From positions 1-22,710 of the forward strand of contig CAXXVK010000065.1 in assembly GCA_963676915.2 (NCBI GenBank): a stretch of DNA of 22,710 nucleotides, given 5' to 3'. The stretch comes from Myxococcota bacterium. GTDB taxonomy: Bacteria; Myxococcota_A; SURF-8; G963663525. Each line of letters opens with the position of its first letter. Position 1 is the first letter of the stretch. The position numbers and the translations under genes were made by a program. The notes under the pieces are model-generated. The model had not been told where the DNA came from. It saw nothing but the letters and a program-made list of their open reading frames with translations, and made no database searches. Below, in pieces: positions 941 through 20,125 of this stretch.

Positions 941-974
941 AAAAAAATCCCGGCAATTTCTGCCGGGATTTTTT
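941..974. terminator. Intrinsic terminator, bidirectional-type
   Basis: AAAAAAATCCCGGCA-ATTTC-TGCCGGGATTTTTT hairpin with A/T tails, about 30 bp downstream of the stop of the minus-strand operon. Confidence 0.8.
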
Positions 975-1003: not shown

Positions 1004-3661
1004 TCAAGTGGTGAGTGAACTGAAATCCAGGTGGTGGTCGGCCTTGCCCATGATCGTCACGACTTTACGAAAAACTTCTTTGGACCACTTCAGCACGCCA
1101 TCGACCATCAGCAGATCGTGGCGGATGGAGATACCGAAAAGTTCCTCATTGAGACGAAGATAGGGCCGGATGACGTTCCAGTCCTCCTGCTTGAAACGCA
1201 TGAACGTCGCTCCGTTAAGCTGCGAAGGATGAATCGTATTATACGGGTCGTTGAGATAGCAGGCACCGCCGGAAGCCAGCGAAAACAGGTTGTTTCCGGG
1301 ATATTTGGCTTCCATGCCGATCACCTCGCCCCGCTCGTCGAAGTCCAGTCCGTTGATCACCACGAAACCGCCGCCGACCTCGTTGCCTGCCATGAAACTC
1401 TCGGCGCAGTAGTCCAGGCAGGTGCCGTTGATGACGGCCCGGATGTCGCCTACGGCGTTGATCAGCGGACGCCCGGCCGCATTGCCCATAATGAAGGCTT
1501 CGCCACCCTTGGCTCCGTACAAAAACGTCTGGCCGACACCACCGAAAACAACGATACGTCCGGCTTTCAGAATCTGTCCGACCTGGTCCTGGGCATCGCC
1601 GTGCACGTAGATTTTCGCGCCATCCATGCCGGAACCCAGATAATCTCCGCTCGAACCGTAGACATCGATCCGTACGTCCGCCGAGTCCGGTCCCAGACCT
1701 ACACCTAAAAAGCGATCGCCCTGGGTACGGTACACGATAAAGTGACGATACCCATCTTTTCGATAGGCTTCGACGATCCGCCGCGCCACCGAATGGTTGC
1801 CTTCGGGCGGAAAACCTCGGGCGTCGAGCACGAGGCTGCAATCCTTGTCTTCCGCTGTGGGAAGGGTTTCGTTCCATGCGTGTTCGTAATCGAGGCGAAT
1901 GGCCTTGAACCCTGGTTTCTGTTCCATAAGAGGAATATCGTCGAGCAGTTGCGCGATATTACGATCCAGATCAGCCAGAACCATCGAACGCCTCCGCTCG
2001 CCGGTATTCCAGCGGCGATCCCGGAGAAACGTTAGTATTTCCAGTGCGTTATCCCAGTGTTCCAGATTTGCTCCGGCCAGGTCGCGAACGGCGGTGGAAA
2101 TGGTTTCCCTATCGCCGGATACAAGTTTGGCCGCCAAATCACGCACGGCTTTTCCACGATCCTTGAAAAACGGCGGTATGAAACGGTCGGACAGTCGCGA
2201 AGGATGATCCGGGTCCGCGCTCTTTGCGCTTTCGTCTTTTTTCCAGGCGTGTTGCAGTACGCTCGCCGTATTTTTCGAATCGGCTTTGGAACGTTTGCGG
2301 GTGACTTCGATAGCTTGGCCGAATTTGTCACGAACATCGAGGAACCTGCCGTCCTCGCCTGTCTTCACGGTGAAACTGAAGGCTCCGCCGTCGGTGCAAC
2401 TACCGCCGCGTGCGTTCCAATAACGGTCCGCCACGGGAGAAACGCGGGGATCTTCGTCGGAAAGCTCTTCGAAAAAGGCGTCGATGGCCTGTTTTTCCGA
2501 AGCGATGGCGCCTACGTGGGTTTCGCCGCACTGAAGCGCGAAAACCTGGGGTCGTAGCATGGAAACGTCGGTAATTCCGATAAGTTGCGGTTCTCCCGTT
2601 TTCGGGTTCGCCCGAGCCACGATAAAGAACCACGGGCCGTCCGGGGAACCGTGAATGTGCGCGGCCTGAATGGCGCGGTAAATGCGCTGGCGGCGCTTGG
2701 TCAGTCGTTCGAAATCGCCTTCCGGTGTCGGAGCCAGTGCTTCGATGACGTATTCCAGCGGATAGTTGAGCACGCGGGAATAGAGGTCGAACATCAGTAC
2801 CGAAACCTCGGTATCGGTCACGAACAGCGGTACTCGCCCTTGTTGCCGCAAATATTCGCTGGAGGCATGGTAGTTGGCGAAGTCGCCGTTATGCACCAGC
2901 GCTTCATGCAATCCGGCGAAGGGATGCGCCCCGCCCGGATGCCAGACGCGTCCTCGGGTGGGATAGCGCTGGTGGCCGATCCAGACGTTGGCTTTTTGCT
3001 CTTCCAGCCGGTAGTAGCGAGCGATCTGCTCGGCGTAGCCTACCGCCTTGAGAATCATCAGGTTGTGTCCGTGGGAAAGCACGAAAGCAGAAGGTTTGGG
3101 CGTGTCGGCGTAATACTTCAGGTTGAGCCGAAAACTGTTCTGATATACGCAATCGTCTTCGGCGGCCTGACGGTCCTCGATCCCGGTTTCCTTCATGAAC
3201 TTGTCGAGAACCTTCTTTTTGACACGTACGAAGTAGCGTTTGACGGTCGGGGGCAGGATCTCCAACCCAACGGCGCGATGGTCGTCGATGGTCGGTAATT
3301 GCTCTTCGTGGGCGATGTCGAACACGGGTCGAACGAATTCGTCCTCTACCGCTTTCACGACTGCTTCGTCCAGATAGGCCATATGAAGGGCGTAGTGCTC
3401 TTTGAAATCGGGAAACAATCCCACTGCCGCCACGCCGCCACCCTTGCCGTTACCCCGGTTCTGCATCTGTTCGCAGGAACGGATGATCAACCGACCGGCC
3501 AGCGGGTCCGAACCGACGATGCCGATAACGCCGCAACCGCCTTCCATCGCCCGCTTGGGTTTGAGTTCCAACCCGCGAACCATGTCCCGGTGGGAACGGA
3601 TAATCGCCCGCGCATCGCTTTCGCGGGAGGAAGTACGGGAAGAATTCGTGTTTTCAGCCAT
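1004..3661 (-). CDS. Glutamate synthase-like subunit: class II glutamine amidotransferase fused to the C-terminal GXGXG beta-helix domain
   Basis: EGGCGVIG (Ntn Cys43 after a propeptide), NRGNGKGGG, IGHQRYPT, AHPF, LVHNGDFANY, TDTEV; C-terminal GDRFLGVG, GDYLGSGMDG, GQTFLYGAKGG, GNAAGR repeats. The start codon is uncertain because the RBS is weak. Confidence 0.88.
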   Translation of the reverse strand: MAENTNSSRTSSRESDARAIIRSHRDMVRGLELKPKRAMEGGCGVIGIVGSDPLAGRLIIRSCEQMQNRGNGKGGGVAAVGLFPDFKEHYALHMAYLDEAVVKAVEDEFVRPVFDIAHEEQLPTIDDHRAVGLEILPPTVKRYFVRVKKKVLDKFMKETGIEDRQAAEDDCVYQNSFRLNLKYYADTPKPSAFVLSHGHNLMILKAVGYAEQIARYYRLEEQKANVWIGHQRYPTRGRVWHPGGAHPFAGLHEALVHNGDFANYHASSEYLRQQGRVPLFVTDTEVSVLMFDLYSRVLNYPLEYVIEALAPTPEGDFERLTKRRQRIYRAIQAAHIHGSPDGPWFFIVARANPKTGEPQLIGITDVSMLRPQVFALQCGETHVGAIASEKQAIDAFFEELSDEDPRVSPVADRYWNARGGSCTDGGAFSFTVKTGEDGRFLDVRDKFGQAIEVTRKRSKADSKNTASVLQHAWKKDESAKSADPDHPSRLSDRFIPPFFKDRGKAVRDLAAKLVSGDRETISTAVRDLAGANLEHWDNALEILTFLRDRRWNTGERRRSMVLADLDRNIAQLLDDIPLMEQKPGFKAIRLDYEHAWNETLPTAEDKDCSLVLDARGFPPEGNHSVARRIVEAYRKDGYRHFIVYRTQGDRFLGVGLGPDSADVRIDVYGSSGDYLGSGMDGAKIYVHGDAQDQVGQILKAGRIVVFGGVGQTFLYGAKGGEAFIMGNAAGRPLINAVGDIRAVINGTCLDYCAESFMAGNEVGGGFVVINGLDFDERGEVIGMEAKYPGNNLFSLASGGACYLNDPYNTIHPSQLNGATFMRFKQEDWNVIRPYLRLNEELFGISIRHDLLMVDGVLKWSKEVFRKVVTIMGKADHHLDFSSLTT

Positions 3662-3721
3662 GTTCGTGTCTCGTTGTCAACGGCCAGTGGAAAAGTCTCC
3701 GGCCTCGTTCGAAATCTTTAC

Positions 3722-6613
3722 TTATTTCACAGCCTTAAGCAGGTCTCGCCTTCCACGCAGGTGAGCCACCGAAGGAAGGTTCAGCGCCCGCAGGCGTTTT
3801 TCCATGTATTTCGCCCAGCTCTGGTACATGTTGACGATACGGTCCCGTACCCACTCGGATTCGAGTTGAGGCGCAAGATCGTGGTCGGTGGTGGCGATGC
3901 CGATCGGACAACCCCGGTCACGCTCGCAGTTTTTGCAGCGCACGCAGTTGATTGCTATCAACTCGGCGGTACCGATGACCACACCGTCCGCGCCCAGTGC
4001 AATGGCTTTGAGCACGTCCTCGGGCGACCGCACGCCGCCGGAAGCGATCAGCACCACCCGATCGCGGATGCCTTCCTTGCTCAGAAAGTCGTGGGCCTGG
4101 GAAACGCCGTATTCGATAGGCTGGGCAATGTTTTTCTTGGCGATATCCGGGGCTGCGCCTGTACCACCGTAGGCACCATCGAGATGCACGACATTCGCCC
4201 CGGCATAATAGCTACCCACCGCCACCATATCCACATCGCCCGGCGTCGAAACTTTCACGGAAATGATGATGTCGGGGTTGATCGTGCGAATCCAGTCCAG
4301 GTGTTTTTTGTGGTCCTCGACGGAATACACGCTGTGGAAGGGGAACGGCGAAAACAGGCTTGTTGCGGGAACCGCCTCGCGCATGGCCGCCACTTCCGGG
4401 GTGTTTTTCTCGCCCAGCAGGTGGCCGCCCAGTCCGGGTTTCGCTCCTTGCGCGTACTTGAATTCCATCATCCGACCGCATTGCAGGGTTTCTTCCCGCA
4501 CACCGAACAATCCGGTAGCGACCTGCGTAATGACGTGGTCGGAATAGTCGAACAATTCCGGTGGGTAACCGCCTTCACCCGTGCTGGTGAACGTCCCGAT
4601 TTCGCTGGCCGCCATGGCGCGTCCGCGCATGACTTGCAGGGAAATCGAGCCGTAGGACATTCCGCCGCCATACATCGGTAAGGGAATGCGCACCTGCTGG
4701 CCTTCTTCGCGCCGGTTCAGGGGAATCGAAAGATCCACGTCACCTTCCCAACATGTGCCGTCGGGCGATTTTTTAGCCAACTCCAGCAGATCGAATCCGC
4801 CTCCGCTGGCTCCGGTCTGGCACTCGGGACGATCGCTGGCGATATCGCCGGTTTTCGCCTGCCGCCAGGTTTCGGAAATCAGCCGCGCCGTCCAGCGTTT
4901 GTCGCCAAGGACGTTGCCGACCGAGCTTTCACGAATTGAAATTGCCTGCCAGGGACAGATTTTCGTGCAACACCAGTCGTTTTCCTCTTCGCAGATCGGT
5001 CCGAGGCATCGGGCATGAATCGGTTCTTCGAGTGCCGCCTTACCTTCGGTGCGTCGGTGGACGCCGGGACGGCAGCTTTCGACACAAAGACCACAATCGG
5101 TGCAGCGGCTGCGGTCGATCTCCACCCGCCAGCTTCCCAGGCTCGTGGGGAAGCGGTCTTTGGTCAACGGGGCGCTTCGTTCGAGCAACGCTTTCGTTGC
5201 TTCGGCATTGGATTCTACCGGCTCGGGCACGGTACCCAACGGTCCGGCGTCGAGGCGTTCGAGGAAATCTTTGCGTGCCCGGTCAGCGAACACCGCCCGG
5301 CCTTTCTCGCCACGCAGCCTTCGTACGTCGCGAATTCCCATCGCTCCCAGTACTTCCAGAAGCTGGTCGCGCCAGCAGAGCATCAGGTTGACCAGCCGTG
5401 TGGCGCCCCAGTCGTCTTTAACAGTGCCCAAGTCCCTGTGGCAATTCTCCATGCCCTTGCATTCGTCGCAAACCGTGCAACCCAAAGCAATCAGAAGAGG
5501 CATATCGACGAACACGCCGTCCGCGCCGGTAAGGATCGTTTTCGGTACGTGCTCGGCCCGTGCAACTCCGCCGCTGGCCAGTAAGGTGATACGGTCGCGC
5601 AGTCCTTCTTCGACGAGCCGTTCGTGGGTTTCGGCAAGAATATCGAGCAGTTCCACACCGTCGCGGCCCTTGCCGAACTCGTCGCAATACAAATGAATCG
5701 TTTCCCCTCCGCACCGCGCCAGCTCCAACACCGTGTCGGCAACGCCTTTGCGGGCCTGTACGGCCAGAATGGTCAGCAAGTGGGGATTGATCTCACGGGC
5801 TTTCTGAAACGCGCCGACCTGATCGCCGTCCTCGGTGATCTCGATAATGGTGGCCCATTGCAGGATATCGGTGCCCTGAGCGATCACTTGCGGATCGAGC
5901 CGTACGAGCAGATGATTGATGAACTCCGCGTAATCCGAGAAGTTTTCGGTATGATCCACGGTAACGTAGGTGTTCAGGCGGCTGGCTGCACGAGCCATGG
6001 AAAGTTTTACGTTTTTCCCCACGGGAAACGGCGATGTCCCAAACAGCATCGGCAACGGAATTTCCCGGTTGGGTGGAATCAACGATTCGAGGTTGCCGTC
6101 TTCATCGAAACGCATTCCGCACAAATCGCCCACCATGCGTCCGAGGTGGATGGTCGTGGAAATATGTTCGCGTCCGTGGATGCCGTCTCGGGTGGGACGA
6201 ACGATTTCGGACATGTCGGTCCAGATGTTATCGAACCCTTTACCATCGAACGGCCCGTCATATCCTGCGCCGCTGACCGGGATTTTACCGCTGGTAGCCT
6301 GTTCCTGAATCGAAGAGATGACCATCGGCGGGTAGGTATCGTTGCCGGTGGACCAGTATTCCTCGTTGTCGTGCATGCTCAACGCGCCACGGGGGCATTT
6401 GAACACGCAGGCAAAGCAGTTACGACAGCAATTGATCTTGGGTTCTTCCATTTTGCGGGGGTCGTCGGCCTTGCGGTCGTGACAGTTGTAAATACAAGCG
6501 TCGATGCACTGCCCACAGTTGATGCAGCGGTCGGAACGGACGATTTTCCTCGGTTTCAAAATGGATTGGCGGGGCGGAGCCTCGATCGGAGCCAGTCGGT
6601 TGAATTCCTTCAT
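3722..6613 (-). CDS. Tandem [ferredoxin + glutamate synthase barrel] x2 protein; first barrel degenerate, second an FMN-binding synthase domain
   Basis: CINCGQCIDAC/CRNCFACVFKCP, then a barrel with ASGGV..AEHVPKTILTGADG and CTVCDEC; second ferredoxin CTDCGLCVESC...CCTKICP; then GGMSYGSIS, TGEGG, QVATGLFGV, KYAQGAKPGLGGHL, DGAYGGTGAAP, CVRCKNCERDRGCPIGIAT. GGAGG RBS; 4-bp ATGA overlap with the upstream gene. Confidence 0.88.
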   Translation of the reverse strand: MKEFNRLAPIEAPPRQSILKPRKIVRSDRCINCGQCIDACIYNCHDRKADDPRKMEEPKINCCRNCFACVFKCPRGALSMHDNEEYWSTGNDTYPPMVISSIQEQATSGKIPVSGAGYDGPFDGKGFDNIWTDMSEIVRPTRDGIHGREHISTTIHLGRMVGDLCGMRFDEDGNLESLIPPNREIPLPMLFGTSPFPVGKNVKLSMARAASRLNTYVTVDHTENFSDYAEFINHLLVRLDPQVIAQGTDILQWATIIEITEDGDQVGAFQKAREINPHLLTILAVQARKGVADTVLELARCGGETIHLYCDEFGKGRDGVELLDILAETHERLVEEGLRDRITLLASGGVARAEHVPKTILTGADGVFVDMPLLIALGCTVCDECKGMENCHRDLGTVKDDWGATRLVNLMLCWRDQLLEVLGAMGIRDVRRLRGEKGRAVFADRARKDFLERLDAGPLGTVPEPVESNAEATKALLERSAPLTKDRFPTSLGSWRVEIDRSRCTDCGLCVESCRPGVHRRTEGKAALEEPIHARCLGPICEEENDWCCTKICPWQAISIRESSVGNVLGDKRWTARLISETWRQAKTGDIASDRPECQTGASGGGFDLLELAKKSPDGTCWEGDVDLSIPLNRREEGQQVRIPLPMYGGGMSYGSISLQVMRGRAMAASEIGTFTSTGEGGYPPELFDYSDHVITQVATGLFGVREETLQCGRMMEFKYAQGAKPGLGGHLLGEKNTPEVAAMREAVPATSLFSPFPFHSVYSVEDHKKHLDWIRTINPDIIISVKVSTPGDVDMVAVGSYYAGANVVHLDGAYGGTGAAPDIAKKNIAQPIEYGVSQAHDFLSKEGIRDRVVLIASGGVRSPEDVLKAIALGADGVVIGTAELIAINCVRCKNCERDRGCPIGIATTDHDLAPQLESEWVRDRIVNMYQSWAKYMEKRLRALNLPSVAHLRGRRDLLKAVK

Positions 6614-8826
6614 CGCTCCCCTCCTTCCAGACGGGATACTTTCGGTATCGAACGGCGGGCCTCACCGGGTTTCCACTCGGGAAAATGCAGTCCGTACAGG
6701 GTCATGATCTCTTCACGGTGGTCGTCGAGTAGCCAGGTGAAACGCTCGATGGTGTCGTCCGGCGAACCGAAACGTCCACTGAGTTTCGCTTCCAGAATCA
6801 GGTAACAGTCGGTCAACGGCAAGCGGGTCTGACAGACTTCCTCGCACAGACCGCAACGCAGACATTGGAAGGGACTGAAGGCTTCGTCTTTGTCGGGAGC
6901 GTCTCCCTTCGAAAGTGCGGTAGCCATGCGCAGTTTGGCGCGGCCCGTAACCCGTTCGTCCTTTGTCAGGCGATACGCCGGACAGACCGAGACGCAGTTT
7001 CCACAAGATGTGCAACGTTGCGCCGTTTCACGCAAAAGCGCTTCACCTTGCTCCATATCGACTTCGGGTACCTGCCAGGTTTTCGGTGAGGAACCGGAGG
7101 TCAGCCGACAGGCCAGACCGAGCACCGTACCAACGGCTGTCGCCAATCCCAAACTCAGATCGAAAACCACCGGATGGAAAAACAATCCCGGAAGGTTGTA
7201 GATCCGTGTCTTCAAAGCGAAGAATTTCATTGGGTTGAGGCGGGTGGCGGGGTCGATCTTTTTCTTGATCCCCCGCAGGTGTTCGAGTCGTTTTTTACCG
7301 ATGCGTTTTTGCACGAACGGCGTGTTCCACACGCCGATTCCGTAAGGTTTTCCACCGGCATGCACCGCCACACGGGTCAACAACTGCACGAGCAGAAGTT
7401 TCAGCATGTAGTTGATGGTTTTGCCGGCGTTGCAGGTAAATGTGGCGATTACCACGCAGTCCGAGTTGTCTCCCTCGTTCGTGACCAGGGTTTCCACCGC
7501 CGGATGCACCCCGAAACGCGCCGCCAATCGCTTCATGCGCCGCAGGTAGGTTGGAATCGAAAGCCGTGGCATCAGTACTTCGGCGGCCAGCAGGCTCGGC
7601 CCCAGGCGTTGACCCTTGAGAGGGAAGAAGCGCTCGGACCACAAAAAGCGGGCTTCGACCCGGTTCGCTTCGGCGTCGATGTCCTGGGTTTTCAGCCAGG
7701 CCGCGAAATCAGTGTCTTGGGATTCGTCGTCGAAGTGGAGCAACACGGCCGGATGTTCGCGAACGATCAGTTCCTTGAACCCCATCCGATCGCGGAACAG
7801 GCGGTTTTCCTCGTCCATGTAATGGGCATCGAAAACGGCGACATGCGACGGCTTGAATTTGCCTTCCACCAGTCGATCCACGAAATCGTATGCGGTCGGG
7901 TCGTCGTCGAAATATAATAGGTAAGGATGACTGAACGAAGAGAGCTTACGAACCTTCAGGGTTATTTCGGTAACGATACCCAATTGACCCTCGGTGCCGA
8001 TGAAATCTCCGATTTTACCGTTTTCCTTAGAAATTTCAATAACATCTCCTGTAGGAAGCACGGCGCGGGCATGCAACAGAGCATCGGAAAACGGCCCGTA
8101 GCCGAAGGCGTCCATCCCCCAACCACCGGTCGCCATCCACCCTCCGAGGGTGGAAAAACGGCTGGACGGCGTGGTGACCGGCGCGAGTCCCTGCTTTTTC
8201 AATTCTTCGGCGAAATCGGCCCAGCGCAACCCCGGTTGCACGGTCGCTTGCAGGGTTTCGGCATCGATGGAAACAATGCGGTCGAACGGGGAGAGATCGA
8301 TCACCAGCCCGTTGCGGGTCGGTTTGGCTCCACCGAAAGCGGACGAGGAAATCCCACGCGGAAACACGTGCACATTCTGCTCGCGGGCGAATCCGAAAGC
8401 CGCCTGGATGTCCTCTTCGTTTTGAGGTTGCAAAGCCAGATACGGTGTGGTGCGATGCAGAAAGCGTTCGAAAAACGAAGGCACCGTAGCCATGTCGAAA
8501 CTGTAGTTCCGTCGTTCGAACGATCCCTGACAAATCCGGGCCTCAGGGGATACTTTTTCCCTTAGTTTTTCGGCCAGCCGCTCGATTTCCACCCGGCGAT
8601 TCGGGGTGTCGCGGTCGCTTACATAGCGCCAGATCAAGCCGAACATGTCCCGAGGCGATCCGAAGAAGATGAAAAACAGCAGTTGCAGCGCCCCGAAAAT
8701 ACCCACTCGTTTCGGATCTCGCCGGATCAACGCATCGATCGGTCCCGGCGGTTCGAGTCCATAGGTTCGTTTCCGGCGCTTGGCCGCTGATCGTGCCTGT
8801 TCCTGTAAAAAGCGGAAACCGCCCAT
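6610..8826 (-). CDS. FAD-binding (GlcD/VAO-fold) oxidoreductase with C-terminal 2x[4Fe-4S] domain
   Basis: VFPRGISSS, LVIDLS, ATVQPG, STLGGWMATGG, FIGTEGQLGIVTEITLK, KKIDP.TRLNP; CTSCGNCVSVCP and CLRCGLCEEVC. AGGAG RBS upstream. Confidence 0.85.
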   Translation of the reverse strand: MGGFRFLQEQARSAAKRRKRTYGLEPPGPIDALIRRDPKRVGIFGALQLLFFIFFGSPRDMFGLIWRYVSDRDTPNRRVEIERLAEKLREKVSPEARICQGSFERRNYSFDMATVPSFFERFLHRTTPYLALQPQNEEDIQAAFGFAREQNVHVFPRGISSSAFGGAKPTRNGLVIDLSPFDRIVSIDAETLQATVQPGLRWADFAEELKKQGLAPVTTPSSRFSTLGGWMATGGWGMDAFGYGPFSDALLHARAVLPTGDVIEISKENGKIGDFIGTEGQLGIVTEITLKVRKLSSFSHPYLLYFDDDPTAYDFVDRLVEGKFKPSHVAVFDAHYMDEENRLFRDRMGFKELIVREHPAVLLHFDDESQDTDFAAWLKTQDIDAEANRVEARFLWSERFFPLKGQRLGPSLLAAEVLMPRLSIPTYLRRMKRLAARFGVHPAVETLVTNEGDNSDCVVIATFTCNAGKTINYMLKLLLVQLLTRVAVHAGGKPYGIGVWNTPFVQKRIGKKRLEHLRGIKKKIDPATRLNPMKFFALKTRIYNLPGLFFHPVVFDLSLGLATAVGTVLGLACRLTSGSSPKTWQVPEVDMEQGEALLRETAQRCTSCGNCVSVCPAYRLTKDERVTGRAKLRMATALSKGDAPDKDEAFSPFQCLRCGLCEEVCQTRLPLTDCYLILEAKLSGRFGSPDDTIERFTWLLDDHREEIMTLYGLHFPEWKPGEARRSIPKVSRLEGGER

Positions 8827-9170
8827 TGCATTCTACTCCTAGACGTTGACGGCAACACCAAAGCGAATTTCCAATCTCCCGTTCTCCATCCTTAATAAAG
8901 GAAAGAAACCGTGACCGGAAAGTCACCCACATCTTGCTGAAAGAAAACCTTTCGTCCTTCGGGAAGCGATCATCGAACCAGCTGTTTTCCCGCAGGAAAA
9001 GCCTACGAATACGCTTGAACGGGAACGAACGTCAAGAGAATACTATCAGCCGGCGGGGATTCAAAGGATTTTGCCCGGTTTGGCGTGAAAAAGAGTCGGA
9101 TAGAGTACTTTAACAAGTGAGGTTCTTGCATATTTCGGAACTTCAACCTGGCGACAAGGTAGACTCGCCG

Positions 9171-10334
9171 TCACCGTAAAGCATTCATGGCTTCTTCGAG
9201 ACCGTCGAGGCTTAGCGTATACATGGGGAACAGTTTTCGAATCATCTGAATCGACTGCCCCATCCAGAAACGTTCGGGCATCGGGTTGAGCCAGACCACT
9301 TTTCTAAAATGATGTACGAAGCGCTTGAGCCACCACAGGCCGGGTTGCTCGTTCCGGTGGTAATAGTAGATCGCTCCATATTTGGCCGCCAGTTCGTAGG
9401 GAGACATCGCGGCATCTCCTACGAAAATCACCCGCCAGTCGCTTTCGAGATCGCTCAACAGTTTGCCGGTGGCGGTGCGCTCGTCCAGTTCCATGTCGGT
9501 GAATACTTCCTCGTAGACACAGTTATGGAAGTAGTAGTAGCGGAACTGCTTGAAATGACTCATCTGGCTGGCGGCCGAGAACATGCGGGAGACGAGATCG
9601 GCGTAAGAGTCCATCGAACCACCGGCATCCATCAACAGCAACAGCTTGAAACGGTTTTTGCGCTCCGGTCGGAACACCAGGTCGATTTCTCCGCCGTCGC
9701 GGCAGGTTTTGTCGATGGAGGCATCCAGATCCAGTTCATCCGCTGCACCGACCCGTTCGAGCACTTTCAGCTTTTTCAACGCCATTTTCATCTGTCGCAG
9801 ATCGAGTACGCGGTCCGAACGGTAATTGGCGAAACGCCGCTTCGTGGCCACCTGAATCGCTGTCCGGTTACCGCCTTGACCACCTACGCGAATTCCCTGG
9901 GGATTGTACCCTCCATGGCCGAATGGTGAGGTTCCCCCGGTGCCGATCCAGCGATTACCGCCGTCGTGGCGCTCGGTCTGCTCTTGCAGGCGTTTCTCGA
10001 ATTCTTCCTGTAACTTATCGAAACCCCACTTTTCCAGCATCTCGCGTTCTTCGGGAGAAAGCTGAAGTGCGTCAATAGGTTGATTGAGCCACTCTTCCAG
10101 CTCTTCTTTGATGCTTGGAGCGAGTTCGACATCCTTGAAATAATGGGCGAACACGCGATCATAGGTATCGTAATGGGTGACATCCTTGACCAACAGGCTA
10201 CGGGCCAGCGTATAGAGACGGTCGAGGCTTTCATCGGCCAGACCTTTGCCCAGCGCCTCCATGAAAATCATCCACTCCGTCACGGTGACGGGGACACGGT
10301 TGGCACGCAAAAGATAGAAAAAATCGGTCAACAT
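9171..10334 (-). CDS. VWA-domain protein, CoxE-like (COG3825-type)
   Basis: ERHDGGNRWIGTGGTSPFGHGG signature, ELDLDASIDKT, MIDAS-like MDAGGSM, YYYFHNCVYE, VGDAAMSPYEL, VWLNP. Confidence 0.85.
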   Translation of the reverse strand: MLTDFFYLLRANRVPVTVTEWMIFMEALGKGLADESLDRLYTLARSLLVKDVTHYDTYDRVFAHYFKDVELAPSIKEELEEWLNQPIDALQLSPEEREMLEKWGFDKLQEEFEKRLQEQTERHDGGNRWIGTGGTSPFGHGGYNPQGIRVGGQGGNRTAIQVATKRRFANYRSDRVLDLRQMKMALKKLKVLERVGAADELDLDASIDKTCRDGGEIDLVFRPERKNRFKLLLLMDAGGSMDSYADLVSRMFSAASQMSHFKQFRYYYFHNCVYEEVFTDMELDERTATGKLLSDLESDWRVIFVGDAAMSPYELAAKYGAIYYYHRNEQPGLWWLKRFVHHFRKVVWLNPMPERFWMGQSIQMIRKLFPMYTLSLDGLEEAMNALR

Positions 10335-10513
10335 CGCTTATTTCCACAACCTTTCCAATTGGTTTCTCTTTATAACCGTAGGTCCGAAATATCCGAACGC
10401 CAACGTTTTTTCATATTTTTACCGGAATCGGTCTGTTGAGACGCTAGTGAGACAAAAATCCGTGCATCCGAAAGATATTTTTATCTTAAAGCTGAAAAAC
10501 CTGACATCCAACC

Positions 10514-10542
10514 TTCACCTGAACGGCAGGTTAAAGTATAAT
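10514..10542 (+). promoter_or_regulatory. Putative sigma70 promoter of the SelW-like gene
   Basis: TTCACC (10514-10519), 17-bp spacer, TATAAT (10537-10542); AGGAG RBS at 10575-10579. Confidence 0.5.
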
Positions 10543-10587
10543 CGATAGATGGAAGTGCACGAATGAAAACGGAAAGGAGCGCATTCG

Positions 10588-10812
10588 ATGAAGTGGAAGA
10601 TCACCTATTGCACGTCTTGAAACTACAAACCCCGAGCCGACCGGGCGTCGGCAGAAATTCTGGAACAATTTCCCGGAGATGAAGTGGAACTGATCCGTGG
10701 TCGAGGTGGGATTTTCGAAGTGGTTCGCGAAGGAGAAACCCTGTTTTCGAAAGCCGCCGTCCAACGTTTTCCACATCCGGGGGAGTTAACCGAAAAAGCG
10801 AAAAAAGGCTAA
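10588..10812 (+). CDS. SelW/SelT/SelH (Rdx) family selenoprotein, 74 aa, CxxU motif
   Basis: Not in the ORF track. Reading through TGA at 10618-10620 gives MKWKITYCTS-U-NYKPRADRASAEILEQFPGDEVELIRGRGGIFEVVREGETLFSKAAVQRFPHPGELTEKAKKG, with the Rdx motifs YCxxU, GG.FEV, LFSK and RFP. Strong RBS and a downstream hairpin. Confidence 0.92.
10636..10652 (+). promoter_or_regulatory. Bacterial SECIS-like hairpin
   Basis: GCCGAC-CGGGC-GTCGGC; 21 nt separate the UGA from the G-rich apical loop. Confidence 0.78.
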
Positions 10813-10850
10813 CGCAAACGGGAGGATGCATCCTCCCGTTTGCGTTAGCC
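10807..10850. repeat. Perfect 44-bp palindrome with no spacer between convergent genes; probable terminator
   Basis: GGCTAACGCAAACGGGAGGATG|CATCCTCCCGTTTGCGTTAGCC, 22-bp arms, overlapping the selenoprotein stop codon. Confidence 0.85.
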
Positions 10851-10894
10851 AATACAATTCGTACGTTGCATCATTCGACATTATCGATAAGCAT

Positions 10895-11125
10895 TCAAGG
10901 TTTGCGGACTTTTCGTTTCGTTCGCATCTGCCAATGGAGAATTTCCGAACGGTTGGCCACCCAACGTCCTCCCAGTTTCCAGATCAGGCGCCGCAATTCC
11001 TCGTCCTGGCCCATCCAACGCCGAAGACAATTGGGAGTCACCCCGATTTCCAAGGCGATGGCCTGCAACGACCAGATCAGTTCTTCATTGCTCGGTACTT
11101 TTGCGTCAAAAATCTCGTTCGACAT
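10895..11125 (-). CDS. Small HTH DNA-binding protein, excisionase/MerR-like, phage-type
   Basis: LQAIALEIGVTPNCLRRW (HTH) followed by KLGGRWVANRSEILHW (wing); AAAGGA RBS. Confidence 0.6.
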   Translation of the reverse strand: MSNEIFDAKVPSNEELIWSLQAIALEIGVTPNCLRRWMGQDEELRRLIWKLGGRWVANRSEILHWQMRTKRKVRKP

Positions 11126-11142
11126 GATATATCCTTTCTACA

Positions 11143-11517
11143 TCAAGGTTCGACGACCATCCCGCCGGTCTCTCCCTCCGATTCCCGGCTTACCATCTCT
11201 TCCAGTACGTGCGAATATTTGAGAAAACGGCTCGAACGGCCGTTTCGATAGGCTGCCAGGCTTTTGAACCCGAGTTCCCGATACGAATGTTTCGCGTCGA
11301 GAATTTTTCGATCCCTCTCGGAAAATCCTGCGACTTCCAACGTTCGCGAAATTTTCCAGTACAAAGCCAACGGTTCGCCCCAACGCAGATCCATATCGTT
11401 CGCAGGAGTTTTCACTATTCGTTCGTGGCTGGGAAAGCGGCTTTCCAACAAGCTTGCGCGTTCCGGTTTCCAGGATAAAAACCAATTCAGTAGGGCACGT
11501 CCTTGTCGATGTTTCAT
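11143..11517 (-). CDS. Hypothetical protein, possibly a phage-type regulator with a sigma-region-4-like or Q-like C-terminus
   Basis: GGAG RBS; 17 bp upstream of the HTH gene on the same strand; FSERDRKIL...SYRELG resembles a C-terminal HTH. The function is a guess. Confidence 0.5.
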   Translation of the reverse strand: MKHRQGRALLNWFLSWKPERASLLESRFPSHERIVKTPANDMDLRWGEPLALYWKISRTLEVAGFSERDRKILDAKHSYRELGFKSLAAYRNGRSSRFLKYSHVLEEMVSRESEGETGGMVVEP

Positions 11518-11746
11518 AATAATTCTCCGGTGTAGCTAATTTTTTACCCTTACATACCATGATATATCCTGTAACGATTGAAAAATTACATTGATACCGA
11601 AGATATTCCAATCGTAATGCTTTTAAGGGTACGATTATTTTGCTTATAAATGTACCTTTCTGACTAATACAGAGCATAAAAGATAAATTTTTGTCTGTCA
11701 AATCATTTTCCCGCCTGTTAGCACTTTGGAACATTTTGACGCGGAT

Positions 11747-11775
11747 TTGACGAAGTTTAAATATTTTGCTATTAC
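11747..11775 (+). promoter_or_regulatory. Candidate promoter for the repressor, possibly leaderless
   Basis: TTGACG (11747-11752), 17-bp spacer, TG-n-TATTAC (11770-11775); ATG begins at 11782 with no clear SD. The -10 lacks its final T. Confidence 0.35.
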
Positions 11776-11781
11776 TGGAAC

Positions 11782-12663
11782 ATGATGGAGAATCTTGATT
11801 TGAAAGTTTTGGGGGGACGCATACAAGGAATGCGGACGTCCAAGCGGGCCACACAAGAGGAAATGGCTGAAAAAACAGGGCTTTCCGTCAGTACCATTAA
11901 AAATATGGAGGCCGGGCGGGCTTCGTACAAGCTTTTGGATCTCGTGAAATTGGCTAAATATTTGGAGGTTCCGCTCGAAGAATTGATCGCTTCCAACGGA
12001 GATGAGGGAGAAGAAAATCCCCATCAACAGGATATATCCAAAAATTTCTACTATCTCGAAGATGCGGAACCCAGTCTGGAGCGGGTCATCCCCGTTTTGG
12101 CTTCGGATCCGTCGGTCGAGCTGTCGTCATCGACCCCCAAATACTTTGTACGCCCCCGTCCGGTACTTTCGCCGGAATCTTTCGGGCTCGAAGTGATCGA
12201 CGACGCCATGCTGCCCATGTACCGACCCGGTGACGTGGTGATCGTCGATCCTCGTGCCACGTTGCATTCCGGTTGTCATGCCGTGATTCGAATGAAAAAA
12301 GCCAAGCATCTATTACTAGGTATCTGGAATGAGATGGACGAGCAGATTTTCTTTACTGCGCTAAATCCCTCACGAGACCCGATGATGGTCCCGAGACGCC
12401 AAATTCAGCGGGTCTATCCCGTTGTCGCCTATATTTGGAAAAGCAATGTGGACCGCTTTGAAGAAGACGAAATCGCCGGAAAGCCGGTGGTGGAAGAATC
12501 TCGGGAGAACGATCTCCTTCCCGGAAAAATCCAGGAACTCTCTTCTCGACTCAATTCCGTAGAAGGTTCGATGGAAGGCGTAATCGGCAAGTTCTCGGAA
12601 ATGCTGGATTTTCTTGACAAAGTGCGGCAGATCGACCCGGACCGGCGTCCGAAGCATTCCTGA
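11782..12663 (+). CDS. XRE-family HTH + S24 peptidase-like (CI/LexA-type) regulator with C-terminal coiled-coil extension
   Basis: RIQGMR...TQEEMAEKTGLSVSTIKNMEAG...LAKYLEVPLEEL (XRE); FGLEVIDDAMLPMYRPGDVVIVDP and LNP (S24 fold); heptad-like tail KIQELSSRLNSVEGSMEGVIGKFSEML. Confidence 0.85.
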   Translation: MMENLDLKVLGGRIQGMRTSKRATQEEMAEKTGLSVSTIKNMEAGRASYKLLDLVKLAKYLEVPLEELIASNGDEGEENPHQQDISKNFYYLEDAEPSLERVIPVLASDPSVELSSSTPKYFVRPRPVLSPESFGLEVIDDAMLPMYRPGDVVIVDPRATLHSGCHAVIRMKKAKHLLLGIWNEMDEQIFFTALNPSRDPMMVPRRQIQRVYPVVAYIWKSNVDRFEEDEIAGKPVVEESRENDLLPGKIQELSSRLNSVEGSMEGVIGKFSEMLDFLDKVRQIDPDRRPKHS

Positions 12664-12672
12664 AAAACATCA

Positions 12673-12734
12673 GTAGGTCGGGCAAATTTCTTGCCCGACA
12701 AAACAAGAGTGTCGGGCTAGAAATTAGCCGCTAC
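12673..12734. repeat. GTAG-type REP doublet (REPIN-like)
   Basis: GTAG-GTCGGGCAA-ATTTC-TTGCCCGAC (12673-12699), 11-bp spacer, and an inverted degenerate copy (12711-12734; reverse complement GTAGCGGCTAATTTCTAGCCCGAC), starting 10 bp after the repressor stop. Confidence 0.7.
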
Positions 12735-12927: not shown

Positions 12928-15900
12928 TCAGTGCTTTTGCGGCTTTCGACGCCGTAAAAGCAACCCTGCAACCAACAGCAGCACCAGTACGATACCCGCC
13001 GGGTGATGCATCGAAGAACAGCGATTGTCGGGGAGAATCGGCACGATAGTATCCTCTCCCGTAATGCTGGCTTCTCCGAACATGGTATAGGTCTGTTTCA
13101 ATTTCCAGCCCACCGGTTTGAGGCGCATGTGATCCATCTGCAACACGCCCATGCTTTGGGTGCGTTGCTGGCTGGAAAACCAATCGAAAGCCCCCCACCA
13201 GACGGCGGAAAACACATACCCGTCTTCTTGGCGACGACCGGCATCGTCGGTCTGGAAATAGTCGATGGCGCCATCCCAGGTTTTTTCGAAGGCCAACCGC
13301 TGGCGGTCGCCTTCTTCGTCGGAAATATCCCAGACGTGGCCGAACTCGGTGATGACCAGAGGCTTGTTCGGCAAGGTTTCCTTGAAACTTTCGAGGAATT
13401 GCCGGGTCAGTTCCTCGGCATCTTCTCCGGCTCCACCTTCTCCCACATCGGATTCCACCAGATCGTAATCCAACTTGTAGCGTGTACCGAGATAACTGCT
13501 AACACCCGCCACATCGGCGGCACGCTCCAGCGCGTCATAGGCTGGGGCGCTGTCGTCACCCAACAACGTTTCGGCATCGAACGAGAGAGTCACAAGCGGT
13601 GGCGCACTGGAGAACGCTCCGAGATCCTCTTTCAATTCTTCAACGAATTCCACAAGTTGTCCGTCCGACCCCGGCTCGCTGTTCGAGGCGGCACCCAACA
13701 TCACCACGGCGGCGCGATTGGCTACCGTGCGGTTCAGTTCACGCCAGCCTTGCAACGCCATCGGTCGGTTTTTCTGCTCGGTGTAGTGGGCTTCGGTGAG
13801 GTTCCAAGCGGGGATTTCCGTCAATACGGCCAGTCCCAGGCGATCGGCCAACATGTAGGTATAAGGGTGGTTGGGCGTCTGACCCGTTCGCAGGAAACGT
13901 ACGCCCAAGGACTTGATTTGCTCCAGGTCGAATCGAATCGAGTCCCAATCCTGACTCCGACCGTCATAACCTTCTTCCTGACGACCGATACCAGGCCAGA
14001 ACGGATACTCGCCGTTGAAAACCACCAATCCGTCTTCCACGGAAATGTGGCGCAAACCGAATTGGAAATACAACACGTCGAACTGGTCGCCTTCGTTGCG
14101 GCCATCCGAAAAGTCCAGCACCTCGACTTCGAGCCCGAACAATCGCGGCGCGTCGGGCGACCACAAACTGTTTTGTTGAATCTGGAAATCGATGGCTACG
14201 GCCCGCCGACCACCGGCTTCGATCGTCGTTTCGGCCTCGGCCAGACCCGTAATGGAAACTTCCTGTGTCAGCAACGGTTTGATTTCGGGTGAGGAAAAGT
14301 AAGAGGTGGAGGTGTTGTCCAGTTCGTGGGCGTGAACCTTGACTTTGATCTGTCGCGGCAGCGTTCCCAATTCCTCCACGACTGCAACCAGCCGTACATC
14401 CCCATTTTCACTGGTAGATACCGCATCCGCCCGCACGATACTGACTTTTTTCTCCTGGGGAAGGTATTCGATGGCAATATCCTGTGTGATTCCGGCATAA
14501 TGCCACCAATCGGCCAGAATGACGGGAGGAAACATACCGGGACGCCATCCCGGCAGAGGATGATCCACGCGAATCAGCAGGTCCATTTGTTCGGCGTTGC
14601 GCATGGGAGAGGGAATTTCGAAGTATGCCGGCGTATAACCGCCCTCGTGCATCCCGATCCAGTAGTAGGACTCGGCTCCTTCCTCTTTGATCCAGACATC
14701 GGCGAGGGTCGCACAACCCGCCATTGCCAACCGCATTCGAGAGGTTCCGCCCGGTAGAGAAACCGTCGTGGTGTACCAGATTCCACCATAATAATGCTCG
14801 GGACTTCCGGTGTCGCCCAGTGCGCCCAAACCGTTTTCCACGGCGGGAAGGGTGATTTCTTCCCAGTCGTCGTTTTCGAAATAGTCTTCTCCACCGGTTC
14901 CGGCTTCGGTCAGCATTTGCTCGATGACCTCGGAATCTCTCGGAGCAAAGCTGAGATCGTGGTCCAACGCCTTGCGGATTTTACGCCACGGTCCCGAAAT
15001 CGTCAGGCGTTCCCAGTTGTTATCTCCATAGGAAGGATACACTTGACCGTTTTGAAACAGCACCGGCAGATCGTCGACGGTCACCACTTCGACGGTGGGT
15101 TGCACCAGGGTTTCGCCGCTTTCCCATAACGAAGGAACGGCACGGACTTCAAACGGTACGGCCAGTACCGCGTCTTCGATGGTTTTACGCGCCACTGCCC
15201 GGAAAATTCCGGTGGTTTCGGGAGTCCAGGAAATGAGACCATCGGAGTCCACACTCATTCCGGCGCTCTCGGCTTCGGCGTCGAGGCTCCAGGTCGCTTC
15301 GGTATGGGCGTTGTATCCGGCGTGATAGGTCCAGGGTTGTCCCAATCGCGCCTGTTTCAACGGTTTGGTTTCGATGGGCGAAAAGCCGGTTTCGCTGATC
15401 AGCCTTCCTTCGTAGCTATGATCGTAAGCGGCTTGAAACAGCGGTGAAAAAGCTTTGTCAGCGGCATCTTGGGAACGGACGAGTTCTTCGTCTCGAAGTT
15501 GCGTAAGTTCCTGTTCCAGCAACACAAATCGCCCATCTTGACCCCAGGCCAGCGCTTGAATTCTGTTGACTGCGAGCATTCCGGCTCTCGTCTGGGCGCT
15601 GAATTTGTCGAGCGCTACGGCCAACTCGTCACGCAGAAACCGATTGCACAACGAGGAACGAAACGTTGCCGGGAAGCGGTAATAGGGGGTCAAGGTATCG
15701 ATCAATGCGGAGGCCTCTATTCCCAACGTGGCGTTGTCCCAACTGGAAATCGTATCTAAAATGCGCTCGACCGCTTCGGAAATTTCCTCCAAGGCTACGT
15801 GTTTGGGTTTCAATTCGTCGTGACGAGCGAAAACCGTGCGCAGCCGTTCCCAGTCCTCGATCGCCACATCGGGGTCCATTTCGGCCACCGCTCGCTCGAT

Positions 15901-17989: not shown

Positions 17990-20125
17990 CTACTGCGAAG
18001 CGCCGTTGCGGGTCAGAATCAGCGCATCGACCGCGACGAGGTTCCCTTTGTTGTCGAGGATCAGCGGGTTGATGTCCAACTCGACGATGTCGGGGCGTTC
18101 CAAAGCCAATTTTCCCACGCCGACGAGCGCTTTTTCCAGCAACTCGGGATTGACACCCTCCTGTCCGCGCAACGCGCCGAACAGACCGGAAGCTTTCAGA
18201 GAATCCGGCATGGAACGCGCTTCGTTAGGACTCAACGGCGCCAGGCGGAAGGTAATGTCGCGAATGGCTTCCGTGAACAATCCGCCGATTCCCAGCATGA
18301 CGGCGGGACCGAAGCCCGGCGTTCGTTTCATACCGATGACGATTTCCCGATTTCCCGGAATCATGGGTGAAATCAGTTTCATGCATCCGTTGCAGCGGTG
18401 GTCGATTTTCTGCCAGGCATCGGCCAACTCGGACTGGCTCTGAATCCCGGCAACGACCAGACCTTCATCGCTTTTGTGCAACACGCCTTCGACCAGTCCC
18501 TTGAGCACTACCGGAAAGCCCAGACTCGCCCCGGAACGCAACGTTTCCTTCAAGGTCTGCACCGTCCGGAATTTTACGACCGGCACGCCGTATTGTTCCA
18601 GCAGGCTGAACGCTTTGTCGTCGTCCATCACCTGCGTGTCACCGTCCGTCTCGCTTTCCGTCACGGTCACGGGAGAGGAATCCCAGTCGTTCTCTCTCTT
18701 TTGGATTTTTCCGAAACGATACAACGCAGCCATCGCCAGGGCGGCTTCCTCGGGGTGATCGTAGACCGGCACGCCGCCGTCCACCAACTGGTCGGTGGCG
18801 CCGTCTTCCCGTAAAAACGTGGACGCCGCCAGCGGTTTGCCGGATTCCTTCAAGGCCGTGAGAAACGGCGTGAAATCCTGTTTGGCTCGTTCGAGAAACA
18901 TCTCTTCGGGAAGTTTCAGAAAATCGCCGAGCACGACGTGGGCTTCTCGCGCCATCGACGTGTCCATCATACCGTGAAGCAATACGGCATCGACTTCTTC
19001 CGCTCCCAGGATGGTTTTCGGCAATCGACGGGCGAAGGCGTCGAAATCGAGGGAAAACGTAAGGTCGATGGGATTGCGGGTGGAACCCGTCGGGGGGATG
19101 TCCTCCCGAAGTTTTTCCTGTAATTCTTCACTTAATTCAGGCACTTGTAACCCGGAACGCTCGCAGGTATCGGCCATCGAAGTGGCGGGACCGCCCGAAT
19201 GAGTCAGAATCGCCACTTTCAGACCGCGAGGTGGCGGCATGGTGGCCAGTGCGTGTCCCCACCCGAACAATTCGGCCGTGGAACGCGCTCGCAAAATTCC
19301 AGCCTGTGCGAATACGCCGTCTACCAGAGCATCTTCTCCACCCATCGAGCCGGTATGCGACAGGCCCGAGCGAGCACCCGCCTCGGTGCCGCCGATGTAG
19401 AGTGCAACAATCGGTTTGTGTCGTGTGATCTCGCGGGCGACTTCCATGAAGCGACGCCCTCGTGGCAATCCTTCGATATACAGCGCGATGGCGCGGGTTT
19501 CGTCGTCTTTTTCGAGGTATTCAAGGCAGTCCACGAGATCGAGATTCGTGGAGTTGCCGACGCTCAACGACTTCGACATCCGAATACCGCGTCCCTGGAG
19601 ATACACCAGCGTCTGGGAAACGTACGTTCCGCTCTGGCTGACGAGACTCAGCCCGCCCGGTTTGTCCTTGTAAGGGAAAACCGTAAGATTTAAAGGAAGA
19701 TGCGTATTGATGACCCCGATGCAGTTGGGACCGACGAAACGCATGTCGTATTTTTTGGCGATGTCCTTCAGGCGATTTTCGCGTTCGAATCCCACGCCGC
19801 GTACTTCTCGAAATCCCGCCGTGGTGATGACGGCATGACGCACACCGTTCTTACCGAGATCTTCCAGAATATCCAGGGAAACATCGGTGGGTGTGGTGAT
19901 CAACGCCATGTCCGGTTTTTCGGGCAATTGCGCTACCTTCGGGGCAGCGGGACAGCCGAAGATTTGGGTTTCTTTCGGATGCAGGAACTGGATGGTTCCC
20001 GGAAAGCCTGCGTGCAGGGCGTTGGCAGCCTGCAACGATCCCATTTTCAATGGATTGCTGCTGGCTCCGGCGATGACGATGGATGTGGGGTGGAGAATCG
20101 ATTCGAGCGGATGAGGATTTTGCAT
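17990..20125 (-). CDS. Acetate/acyl-CoA ligase (ADP-forming), fused alpha-beta ACD family
   Basis: SIVIAGAS, ITTAGFRE, VGPNCIG, VSQSG, LYIEG, phospho-His motif SHTGS, SGGP, NPIDL; ATP-grasp FPVVLK, HKSD, FGPAVMLGIGG, ELDINPL, AVDAL. GGAG RBS. Confidence 0.92.
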   Translation of the reverse strand: MQNPHPLESILHPTSIVIAGASSNPLKMGSLQAANALHAGFPGTIQFLHPKETQIFGCPAAPKVAQLPEKPDMALITTPTDVSLDILEDLGKNGVRHAVITTAGFREVRGVGFERENRLKDIAKKYDMRFVGPNCIGVINTHLPLNLTVFPYKDKPGGLSLVSQSGTYVSQTLVYLQGRGIRMSKSLSVGNSTNLDLVDCLEYLEKDDETRAIALYIEGLPRGRRFMEVAREITRHKPIVALYIGGTEAGARSGLSHTGSMGGEDALVDGVFAQAGILRARSTAELFGWGHALATMPPPRGLKVAILTHSGGPATSMADTCERSGLQVPELSEELQEKLREDIPPTGSTRNPIDLTFSLDFDAFARRLPKTILGAEEVDAVLLHGMMDTSMAREAHVVLGDFLKLPEEMFLERAKQDFTPFLTALKESGKPLAASTFLREDGATDQLVDGGVPVYDHPEEAALAMAALYRFGKIQKRENDWDSSPVTVTESETDGDTQVMDDDKAFSLLEQYGVPVVKFRTVQTLKETLRSGASLGFPVVLKGLVEGVLHKSDEGLVVAGIQSQSELADAWQKIDHRCNGCMKLISPMIPGNREIVIGMKRTPGFGPAVMLGIGGLFTEAIRDITFRLAPLSPNEARSMPDSLKASGLFGALRGQEGVNPELLEKALVGVGKLALERPDIVELDINPLILDNKGNLVAVDALILTRNGASQ

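Follow-up and report, generated by a model that had tools for sequence, protein, structure and literature searches.

Glutamate synthase (glutamine:2-oxoglutarate aminotransferase, GOGAT) is the gateway of nitrogen into biomass, and its textbook reductants are NAD(P)H and ferredoxin. The 22,710-bp contig CAXXVK010000065.1 of a Myxococcota bacterium (assembly GCA_963676915.2; genome of 5.18 Mb, 90.8% complete), analysed over its entire length as our window, raises the question of how a glutamate synthase might receive electrons when no GltD gene lies beside it. Three long open reading frames (ORFs) on its minus strand, 8826-1004, encode in that order a flavin adenine dinucleotide (FAD)/iron-sulfur (Fe-S) subunit, a subunit with two TIM barrels, and a subunit in which a glutamine amidotransferase is fused to a GXGXG domain (GAT subunit). 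This operon probably specifies a GltD-independent three-subunit glutamate synthase fed via FAD, then Fe-S clusters, then flavin mononucleotide (FMN), a reading for which comparative genomics gives support in the domains and catalytic motifs encoded, the linkage of the three genes, the co-variation of the FAD gene with a ferredoxin insert, and genomes that carry the triad but no canonical GltB.

6610..8826, minus strand: gene 1, FAD/Fe-S subunit, 738 residues, proposed electron-input module (ORF, Pfam, AlphaFold2 model, Foldseek)
8029..8436, minus strand: gene 1, FAD_binding_4 (PCMH-type) domain, residues 131-266 (Pfam E 7.7e-33)
7225..7917, minus strand: gene 1, FAD-oxidase_C cap domain, residues 304-534 (Pfam E 2.1e-10)
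6826..7023, minus strand: gene 1, 2x[4Fe-4S] ferredoxin-like domain, residues 602-667 (Fer4_8, 8e-10; Fer4_7; Fer4_17)
3722..6613, minus strand: gene 2, barrel subunit, 963 residues, tandem of two [Fer4 + TIM barrel] units (ORF, Pfam, internal BLASTP)
6374..6541, minus strand: gene 2, N-terminal 2x[4Fe-4S] domain, residues 25-80 (Fer4_9, Fer4_21)
5264..6316, minus strand: gene 2, N-barrel, counterpart of the GltB central domain, about residues 100-450 (weak Glu_syn_central, PF01645, alignment A3)
4916..5131, minus strand: gene 2, middle 2x[4Fe-4S] insert, residues 495-566 (Fer4 matches)
3800..4702, minus strand: gene 2, GltB-type FMN (synthase) barrel, residues 638-938 (PF01645, Glu_synthase, E 1.7e-103)
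1004..3661, minus strand: gene 3, amidotransferase + GXGXG fusion (GAT subunit), 885 residues (ORF, Pfam)
3536..3661, minus strand: gene 3, N-terminal extension, residues 1-42, propeptide-like (translation, alignment A2)
2372..3535, minus strand: gene 3, class-II (Ntn) glutamine amidotransferase domain, about residues 43-430 (GATase_6 E 2.3e-6)
1232..1684, minus strand: gene 3, GXGXG beta-helix domain, residues 660-810 (PF01493 E 3.8e-13)
942..974, minus strand: intrinsic terminator at the operon end, 3' of the GAT stop codon (sequence and folding)
8827..9170, minus strand: upstream non-coding region (leader or promoter), 344 nt (sequence)

Domain make-up of the three subunits

The stop codon of the FAD gene overlaps the start codon of the barrel (FMN) gene as ATGA, with GGAGG just 5' of it, which indicates translational coupling of the two; a spacer of 60 nt separates the FMN gene from the GAT gene. 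A first-pass annotation of this DNA had placed the amidotransferase and GXGXG domains on one protein, both barrels with built-in ferredoxins on another, and an ATGA-linked flavoprotein of the GlcD/vanillyl alcohol oxidase (VAO) fold with 2x[4Fe-4S] in front of them; Pfam, Foldseek and the sequence itself bear out these assignments. It had also described the operon as lacking gltD and ending at a terminator, and both descriptions hold. Pfam detected no GltD-type gene (Fer4_20 plus Pyr_redox_2) in the operon or elsewhere in the 22.7-kb window. The terminator, unlisted by a simple terminator scan, was confirmed by folding as a GC-rich 14-bp hairpin followed by a U-run (dG -23.8 kcal/mol, z -4.67, with 0 of 200 shuffled sequences equally stable).

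The C-terminal barrel of gene 2 aligns with residues 855-1171 of Azospirillum brasilense GltB (E 1.7e-51) and retains the 2-oxoglutarate- and FMN-site motifs, which do not vary across 13 of 13 sequences: AQGAKPGxGG, R745 and the SPxPxH..YS.ED stretch. Alignment to solved GltB also locates the GGTGA and ASGG/GADG motifs within it. Its cluster motif, C890/893/896/902, is invariant and comprises four cysteines against three in solved GltB, so that the barrel cluster may be [4Fe-4S] and not [3Fe-4S]. The two halves of the protein are homologous (23% identity, E 2e-28, internal BLASTP), each consisting of a ferredoxin domain followed by a TIM barrel, and the "central" barrel is a recognisable duplicate of the Fer4-plus-FMN-barrel unit. 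This N-barrel matches Glu_syn_central weakly (5e-4, under the cut-off) and also scores on PF01645 (5333-5659, E 1.8e-13). Among the orthologues of alignment A3, which are 61-65% identical to the barrel subunit, the predicted ligands of the N-terminal ferredoxin domain (C30/33/36/40 and C63/66/69/73) and cysteines 504/507/510/514/536/541/548/549/553 of the middle insert are invariant. An additional CxxCxxC...C motif in the N-barrel (C378/381/384/390; 5444-5482) occurs here and in 4 of the 12 orthologues aligned, with a Cys-free stretch in its place in the other eight (Aminicenantes-type); the motif is best described as an optional extra predicted cluster. NCBIfam rates gene 2 as GltB large-subunit-like, far under equivalog cut-offs.

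All 13 GAT sequences share EGG-C43-GVIG, R232 (in GHQRYPTRG), H257-N258-G259 and T282-D283-T284-E285-V286, which correspond to the Cys nucleophile, glutamine-binding Arg, oxyanion Asn-Gly and Asp known from PurF, GlmS and other Ntn amidotransferases. Position 43, not position 2, holds the amidotransferase Cys, and in alignment A2, whose orthologues are 61-66% identical to the GAT subunit, 25 to 40 residues of moderate conservation come before it; activity would require the removal of this extension. Some PurF proteins carry propeptides, and we infer from the alignment that the extension is processed ahead of Cys43. The domain matches GATase_6 and the glmS/purF NCBIfam hidden Markov models, not GATase_2, and the C-terminal part is FwdC/GltB-like, all these NCBIfam scores being far under equivalog cut-offs. 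Searched against Protein Data Bank sequences, the A2 profile matched in its C-terminal part residues 1269-1407 of ferredoxin-dependent glutamate synthase (Fd-GltS) and FwdC. The GAT subunit has matches in at least 7645 clusters of proteins at 90% identity, and this large family spans both the three-gene form and the FAD-less sister operons described below.

The AlphaFold2 (AF2) model of the FAD subunit (predicted local distance difference test score, pLDDT, 86; predicted template-modelling score, pTM, 0.86) has a helical N-terminal extension of 95 residues ahead of the VAO core. Foldseek matched the core best to D-lactate dehydrogenases (D-LDH), AGPS (alkyl-dihydroxyacetone-phosphate synthase) and LctD, with target-normalised TM of about 0.8 and E of about 1e-22 to 1e-19 (1.9e-22 against D-LDH 9QIT); NCBIfam scores gene 1 as GlcD-like, far under equivalog cut-offs. 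In 31 family members all eight predicted cluster ligands (C605/608/611/615 and C655/658/661/665) are invariant, as are the polar cap-domain residues H328, R399, R407, E416, E445, Y473, Q481 and Y495, and the latter suggest a real ligand pocket. By Pfam, the protein has its Fer4 dicluster and no CCG or other acceptor-side domain. The family numbers 234 matches among 8000 scored candidates, has a near-constant length of about 739 residues and comes from sources whose names include Planctomycetota, Acidobacteriota, Aminicenantes, Riflebacteria and Deltaproteobacteria metagenome-assembled genomes; a protein-cluster atlas search gave only generic FAD/Fer4 clusters. Between the VAO core and the Fe-S domain lies a hydrophobic linker (residues 553-575; 7102-7170; Kyte-Doolittle 1.86, a borderline value) that has similar hydrophobic peaks in many family members and forms two short helices in the AF2 model. 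It could be a membrane or subunit contact.

Linkage of the genes and genome content

To follow the FAD gene across genomes, we scanned one genome per species with a profile built from the FAD-family alignment and obtained 22 loci with full or partial orthologues. The FMN gene lies directly after the FAD gene in 21 of these 22 loci, the contig of the 22nd stopping inside the FAD gene, and the GAT gene comes next in all 14 loci whose DNA extends far enough. The same order recurs in a second genus of the window's phylum, and in 13 related loci the flanking genes are otherwise unconserved. In the reverse direction, a GAT-anchored metagenome scan yielded 80 loci, of which 37 with less than 5.3 kb of upstream DNA were left out and 43 kept; the FAD gene is present in 34 and missing from 9. 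The neighborhood survey that the first-pass annotation had proposed thus shows the three genes to be a conserved unit that keeps its order across phyla.

The middle ferredoxin insert co-varies with the FAD gene. It was found in 34 of 34 loci with the FAD gene (33 of them scoring at least 40 bits and the other 35 bits) and in 0 of 9 without it; seven of the nine retain the N-terminal ferredoxin domain and two have none. Three more FAD-less operons from genomes (L092-L094) also lack the middle insert. A wire running from FAD through Fe-S clusters to FMN predicts such co-variation, and of all the computational arguments this one speaks most strongly for ferredoxin inserts that serve to connect the FAD subunit to the FMN site. 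The electron path that the first-pass annotation had put forward gains support to this extent.

The FAD-less sister operons (L092-L094, L124, L138, L141, L142, L152, L156, L160, L167 and L174) encode their barrels as two separate genes or as one fused gene of about 820-840 residues. Their neighbors include a divergent AsnC-type regulator, a glutamine synthetase (GS) gene directly upstream (L160) and glutamine-dependent NadE (L138, L152). EtfB/EtfA genes lie directly downstream of the operon in L124 and could be another solution to electron input.

In relatives, genes of nitrogen metabolism recur around the operon. In L125 and L127 the order is FAD-FMN-glnA-GAT, with glnA (6700-8022 and 6568-7890, respectively; Pfam E about 1e-120) between the barrel and GAT genes. 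A type III GS (GSIII) gene lies divergently upstream of the triad in L029, an NtrC-type regulator gene directly upstream in L020, and a Lrp/AsnC-type regulator adjoins the operon in 14 of 106 loci. Public annotations of the components read "glutamate synthase domain-containing protein 1/3", "GltB/FmdC/FwdC-like GXGXG domain-containing protein" and "FAD-binding oxidoreductase"; being piecemeal, they show that the genes have been named singly and the system itself left undescribed.

Within the source genome, strong PF01645 matches are confined to the two barrels of gene 2, with one weak match on another contig (E 4.3e-5, 24 bits). GATase_2 was not found in this 90.8% complete genome, which encodes one GS and a glutamate dehydrogenase (GDH). 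A same-genus genome that is 96% complete (G023) likewise lacks canonical GltB. Among 201 sampled genomes of the phylum, the triad occurs in four from two genera (the source genome, G000, with G023; G126 with G141); GATase_2 is found in 0 of these 4, against a GltB of about 1500 residues in 123 of the 197 others. Five further triad genomes from other phyla contain no PF01645 protein of about 1500 residues, and canonical GltB is missing from 9 of 9 triad genomes overall, a count in which relatives are not independent. Two of these five genomes (G001 and G005) also encode separate archaeal-type PF01645 proteins of 470-500 residues and thus keep two GltB-like systems. On the genome-wide question of gltB and gltD raised by the first-pass annotation, the answer is divided: the triad is the only GltB-like system of its genome, but four GltD-like proteins are encoded on other contigs.

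Rfam gave 0 matches in the whole window, including the 344-nt upstream region, and a sigma-70 promoter scan found 3 sites against 3.5 expected, which is chance level. A VWA_CoxE-domain protein gene (9171-10334, minus strand) lies on the same strand 344 nt upstream of the operon and was not kept in the 13 related loci examined. From 10000 to 12700 the GC content is 0.45-0.48, against about 0.56-0.60 elsewhere in the window; ORFs there lack Pfam matches, save for an HTH_3 plus Peptidase_S24 (LexA/CI-like) repressor at 11782-12663, and the stretch may be a mobile-element remnant. Farther along are genes for a 1546-residue protein with a GH84 beta-N-acetylglucosaminidase domain and GH2 domains (12928-17568, minus strand) and for a 711-residue ADP-forming acetyl-CoA synthetase-type protein (CoA_binding_2, Succ_CoA_lig, ATP-grasp_5; 17990-20125, minus strand). 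A class I/II aminotransferase at 20657-21848 on the plus strand is split over two frames (20657-21424, profile positions 2-194; 21348-21848, profile positions 213-358) by a frameshift, from a pseudogene or an assembly error.

Electron input and rival readings

In the mechanism that we propose, the GAT subunit, its extension removed to expose Cys43, would hydrolyse glutamine, and the GXGXG beta-helix fused to it would play the same structural role as in GltB. Ammonia would pass to the C-terminal FMN barrel, where 2-oxoglutarate would be converted to 2-iminoglutarate and this reduced by FMNH2 to glutamate. The FAD of the VAO/D-LDH-fold subunit would take a hydride or electron pair from a donor, and electrons would then travel singly from FAD to the two [4Fe-4S] clusters of the same subunit, the ferredoxin inserts of the barrel subunit, the barrel cluster and finally FMN. 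We infer the assembly of the complex, the order of the clusters and the direction of electron flow from sequence. A complex prediction for barrel residues 1-600 with FAD-subunit residues 536-738, run with alignments, scored 0.00; its controls were not run, and it counts neither way.

Several observations weigh against this proposal. Sequence and profile alignments to LctD and D-LDH show that the FAD subunit lacks the His...His plus Glu-His (GEHGIG) signature of D-2-hydroxyacid dehydrogenases, presumably their metal ligands and catalytic base. At the GEHGIG position the family has GxPYGIG (GKPYGIG here), and Tyr495 is invariant in 31 of 31 members; the subunit is by all indications a relative of these dehydrogenases with a rebuilt active site. 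Absence of the metal and His signature means that a 2-hydroxyacid donor is not implied, and the flavin site may be non-catalytic, with no donor that can be named. The existence of FAD-less sister operons shows that the core is not strictly dependent on the FAD gene. Four GltD-like proteins (Fer4_20 plus Pyr_redox_2) of 573, 617, 710 and 1499 residues, encoded elsewhere in the genome, could serve the core in trans. They map to contigs C8, C73, C19 and C64 (loci L088-L091), none near the triad, and each is fused to extra ferredoxin domains; proteins of this type also occur in other complexes of Fe-S flavoenzymes. Canonical gltBD could sit in the missing part of a genome that is 90.8% complete. 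Furthermore, of the 197 phylum genomes in which the triad is missing, 75 are without canonical GltB as well, so that GltB absence alone forces no replacement and some lineages do without GOGAT. Finally, the AF2 model of the GAT subunit, built from 13 sequences, was poor (pLDDT 54) and was left unused. As separate observations, the 1499-residue GltD-like protein has a second flavin-binding region, and D-2-hydroxyglutarate and D-lactate were set aside as candidate donors because the metal and His signature is missing.

Could the barrel and GAT subunits form a glutamate synthase that depends on ferredoxin or on GltD in trans, beside an FAD/Fe-S protein that is a co-regulated separate enzyme? Such a protein might supply 2-oxoglutarate or dispose of a by-product while its electrons go elsewhere, and the FAD-less operons, the distant GltD-like proteins and the conserved cap Arg, Glu and Tyr, with the substrate pocket they suggest, all accord with it. 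We nevertheless consider this unlikely, given the perfect co-variation of the FAD gene with the middle insert, the strict gene order with its translationally coupling overlap, and a Fer4 dicluster that comes without an acceptor-side domain such as CCG. A different doubt concerns the substrate, for which the first-pass annotation had left an alternative open. The core might aminate another 2-oxoacid or perform an amine transfer like that of N-methylglutamate synthase and not act as housekeeping GOGAT, as would be in keeping with an amidotransferase nearer the PurF/GlmS type than GATase_2, with a GDH in the genome that makes GOGAT not strictly essential, and with known split GltB-like systems of other function, such as MgsABC. 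The invariant 2-oxoglutarate-site motifs aligned to solved GltB, together with the invariant glutamine-site motifs, the glnA genes inside or beside the operon and AsnC-type neighbors in relatives, and the absence of canonical GltB from all nine triad genomes, make this alternative improbable; moreover, an electron-input module would be senseless for a redox-neutral transfer.

Running the same chain backward gives a glutamate-oxidising dehydrogenase: FMN would hand its electrons to the clusters, these would relay them to the FAD subunit, and the FAD subunit would reduce an acceptor. An FAD site without a recognisable donor signature would suit that direction, as would the linker at residues 553-575 if its conserved hydrophobicity means membrane or quinone contact. 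We give this very little credence: the glutamine-hydrolysing residues of the GAT subunit are invariant and would be pointless in the oxidative direction, and the neighbors in relatives are GS and nitrogen regulators.

Returning to a three-subunit glutamate synthase reduced through FAD, we tentatively suggest a further possibility, which we rate as less likely than not. Its remodelled VAO/D-LDH-type flavin site would draw electrons from an organic acid, say, or another metabolite, and not from NAD(P)H or free ferredoxin; six to seven Fe-S clusters would lead to FMN; and many uncultured bacteria (Aminicenantes, Acidobacteriota, Planctomycetota-like and related groups) would have no other GOGAT. 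NAD(P)H may yet be the donor at the FAD site, by analogy with MurB and other PCMH-fold flavoproteins that use it. A donor other than NAD(P)H or ferredoxin would couple nitrogen assimilation directly to the oxidation of a carbon substrate and give glutamate synthase a third mode of feeding. The arrangement is widespread in mostly uncultured bacteria yet unstudied, and the genomes in which the three-gene form occurs seem to have no GltB-like system besides it. Were the VAO-type flavoprotein the reductase, the way in which many uncultured bacteria of sediment and soil pay for nitrogen assimilation would be wrongly assigned in metabolic models, and a new flavin-to-Fe-S-to-flavin wire would be open to study. 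The existence of paired operon forms, with and without the FAD gene, amounts to a natural experiment on the electron path.

Comparison with known systems

Compared with GltB/GltD (1EA0, 2VDC, 6S6S, 7MFM), the triad has an FMN barrel that is 35-40% alike and keeps all core motifs, along with a cluster near FMN, a barrel of the central type, a GXGXG beta-helix and a predicted class-II amidotransferase. It departs from the single-chain order GATase-central-FMN-GXGXG of GltB by splitting the four domains over two chains in a new order (Fer4-central-Fer4-FMN; GATase-GXGXG). It also adds two ferredoxin dicluster inserts, has four barrel-cluster cysteines in place of three, and uses an amidotransferase of the PurF/GlmS type with its Cys at residue 43. 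Where GltB has GltD, the triad has a linked gene for a VAO-fold FAD protein. Fd-GltS (1LLW, 1OFD) shares with the triad the lack of a GltD partner, and the synthase and GXGXG domains are alike, but Fd-GltS is one chain fed by free ferredoxin, whereas the triad has built-in ferredoxin-like domains and a linked flavoprotein gene of its own. A closer functional analogue of Fd-GltS may lie in the FAD-less sister operons (L092-L094, L124 and others).

The FAD subunit has the fold and the FAD_binding_4 plus FAD-oxidase_C domains of the VAO-type D-2-hydroxyacid dehydrogenases (D-LDH 9QIT and 8JDE; LctD of LctBCD, 7QH2; GlcD; D-2-hydroxyglutarate dehydrogenase), and its C-terminal Fe-S domain resembles that of YdiJ, a fused GlcD+GlcF-type protein. 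It differs from these dehydrogenases in lacking the His/His/Glu-His residues and CCG and in its 95-residue helical N-terminal extension. The N-methylglutamate synthase MgsABC is likewise GltB-like and split, its subunits being GATase-like, GXGXG-like and of the FMN-barrel type; its reaction is redox-neutral and needs no reductase, unlike the triad, which has seven or eight predicted clusters besides its FAD/Fe-S input module. Neither the window nor 13 related loci showed gmaS or mgd (mgdABCD) genes, and the barrel subunit has no NCBIfam matches other than GltB.

A full-text literature search, with subscription journals outside its coverage, did not turn up any paper that connects a VAO/GlcD-type flavoprotein with glutamate synthase. 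In concept the nearest precedent is the split archaeal glutamate synthase (GltS) together with a putative F420-dependent GltS. Archaea are described as having ORFs for individual GltS domains (2021 review, PMC8097209), and the proposal of the F420-dependent enzyme rests on an FrhB/FdhB-like gene that adjoins one for a GltS subunit (PMC3448663). The archaeal split and F420-type systems resemble the triad in having separate domain ORFs, a ferredoxin domain on the FMN-barrel unit and an input subunit deduced from context (PMC3448663). Their proposed input protein is FrhB/FdhB-like (F420; PMC3448663), that of the triad a VAO/PCMH-fold FAD protein. Compared by description, the triad further differs from the archaeal type in that its Fer4-plus-barrel unit is tandemly duplicated and its GATase and GXGXG domains are fused, not separate. 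Taken together, these comparisons indicate that the predicted synthase chemistry is that of GltS, in an architecture unlike GltBD or Fd-GltS. What is known here is the glutamate synthase chemistry; what is new is the predicted subunit plan and the candidate electron-input module.

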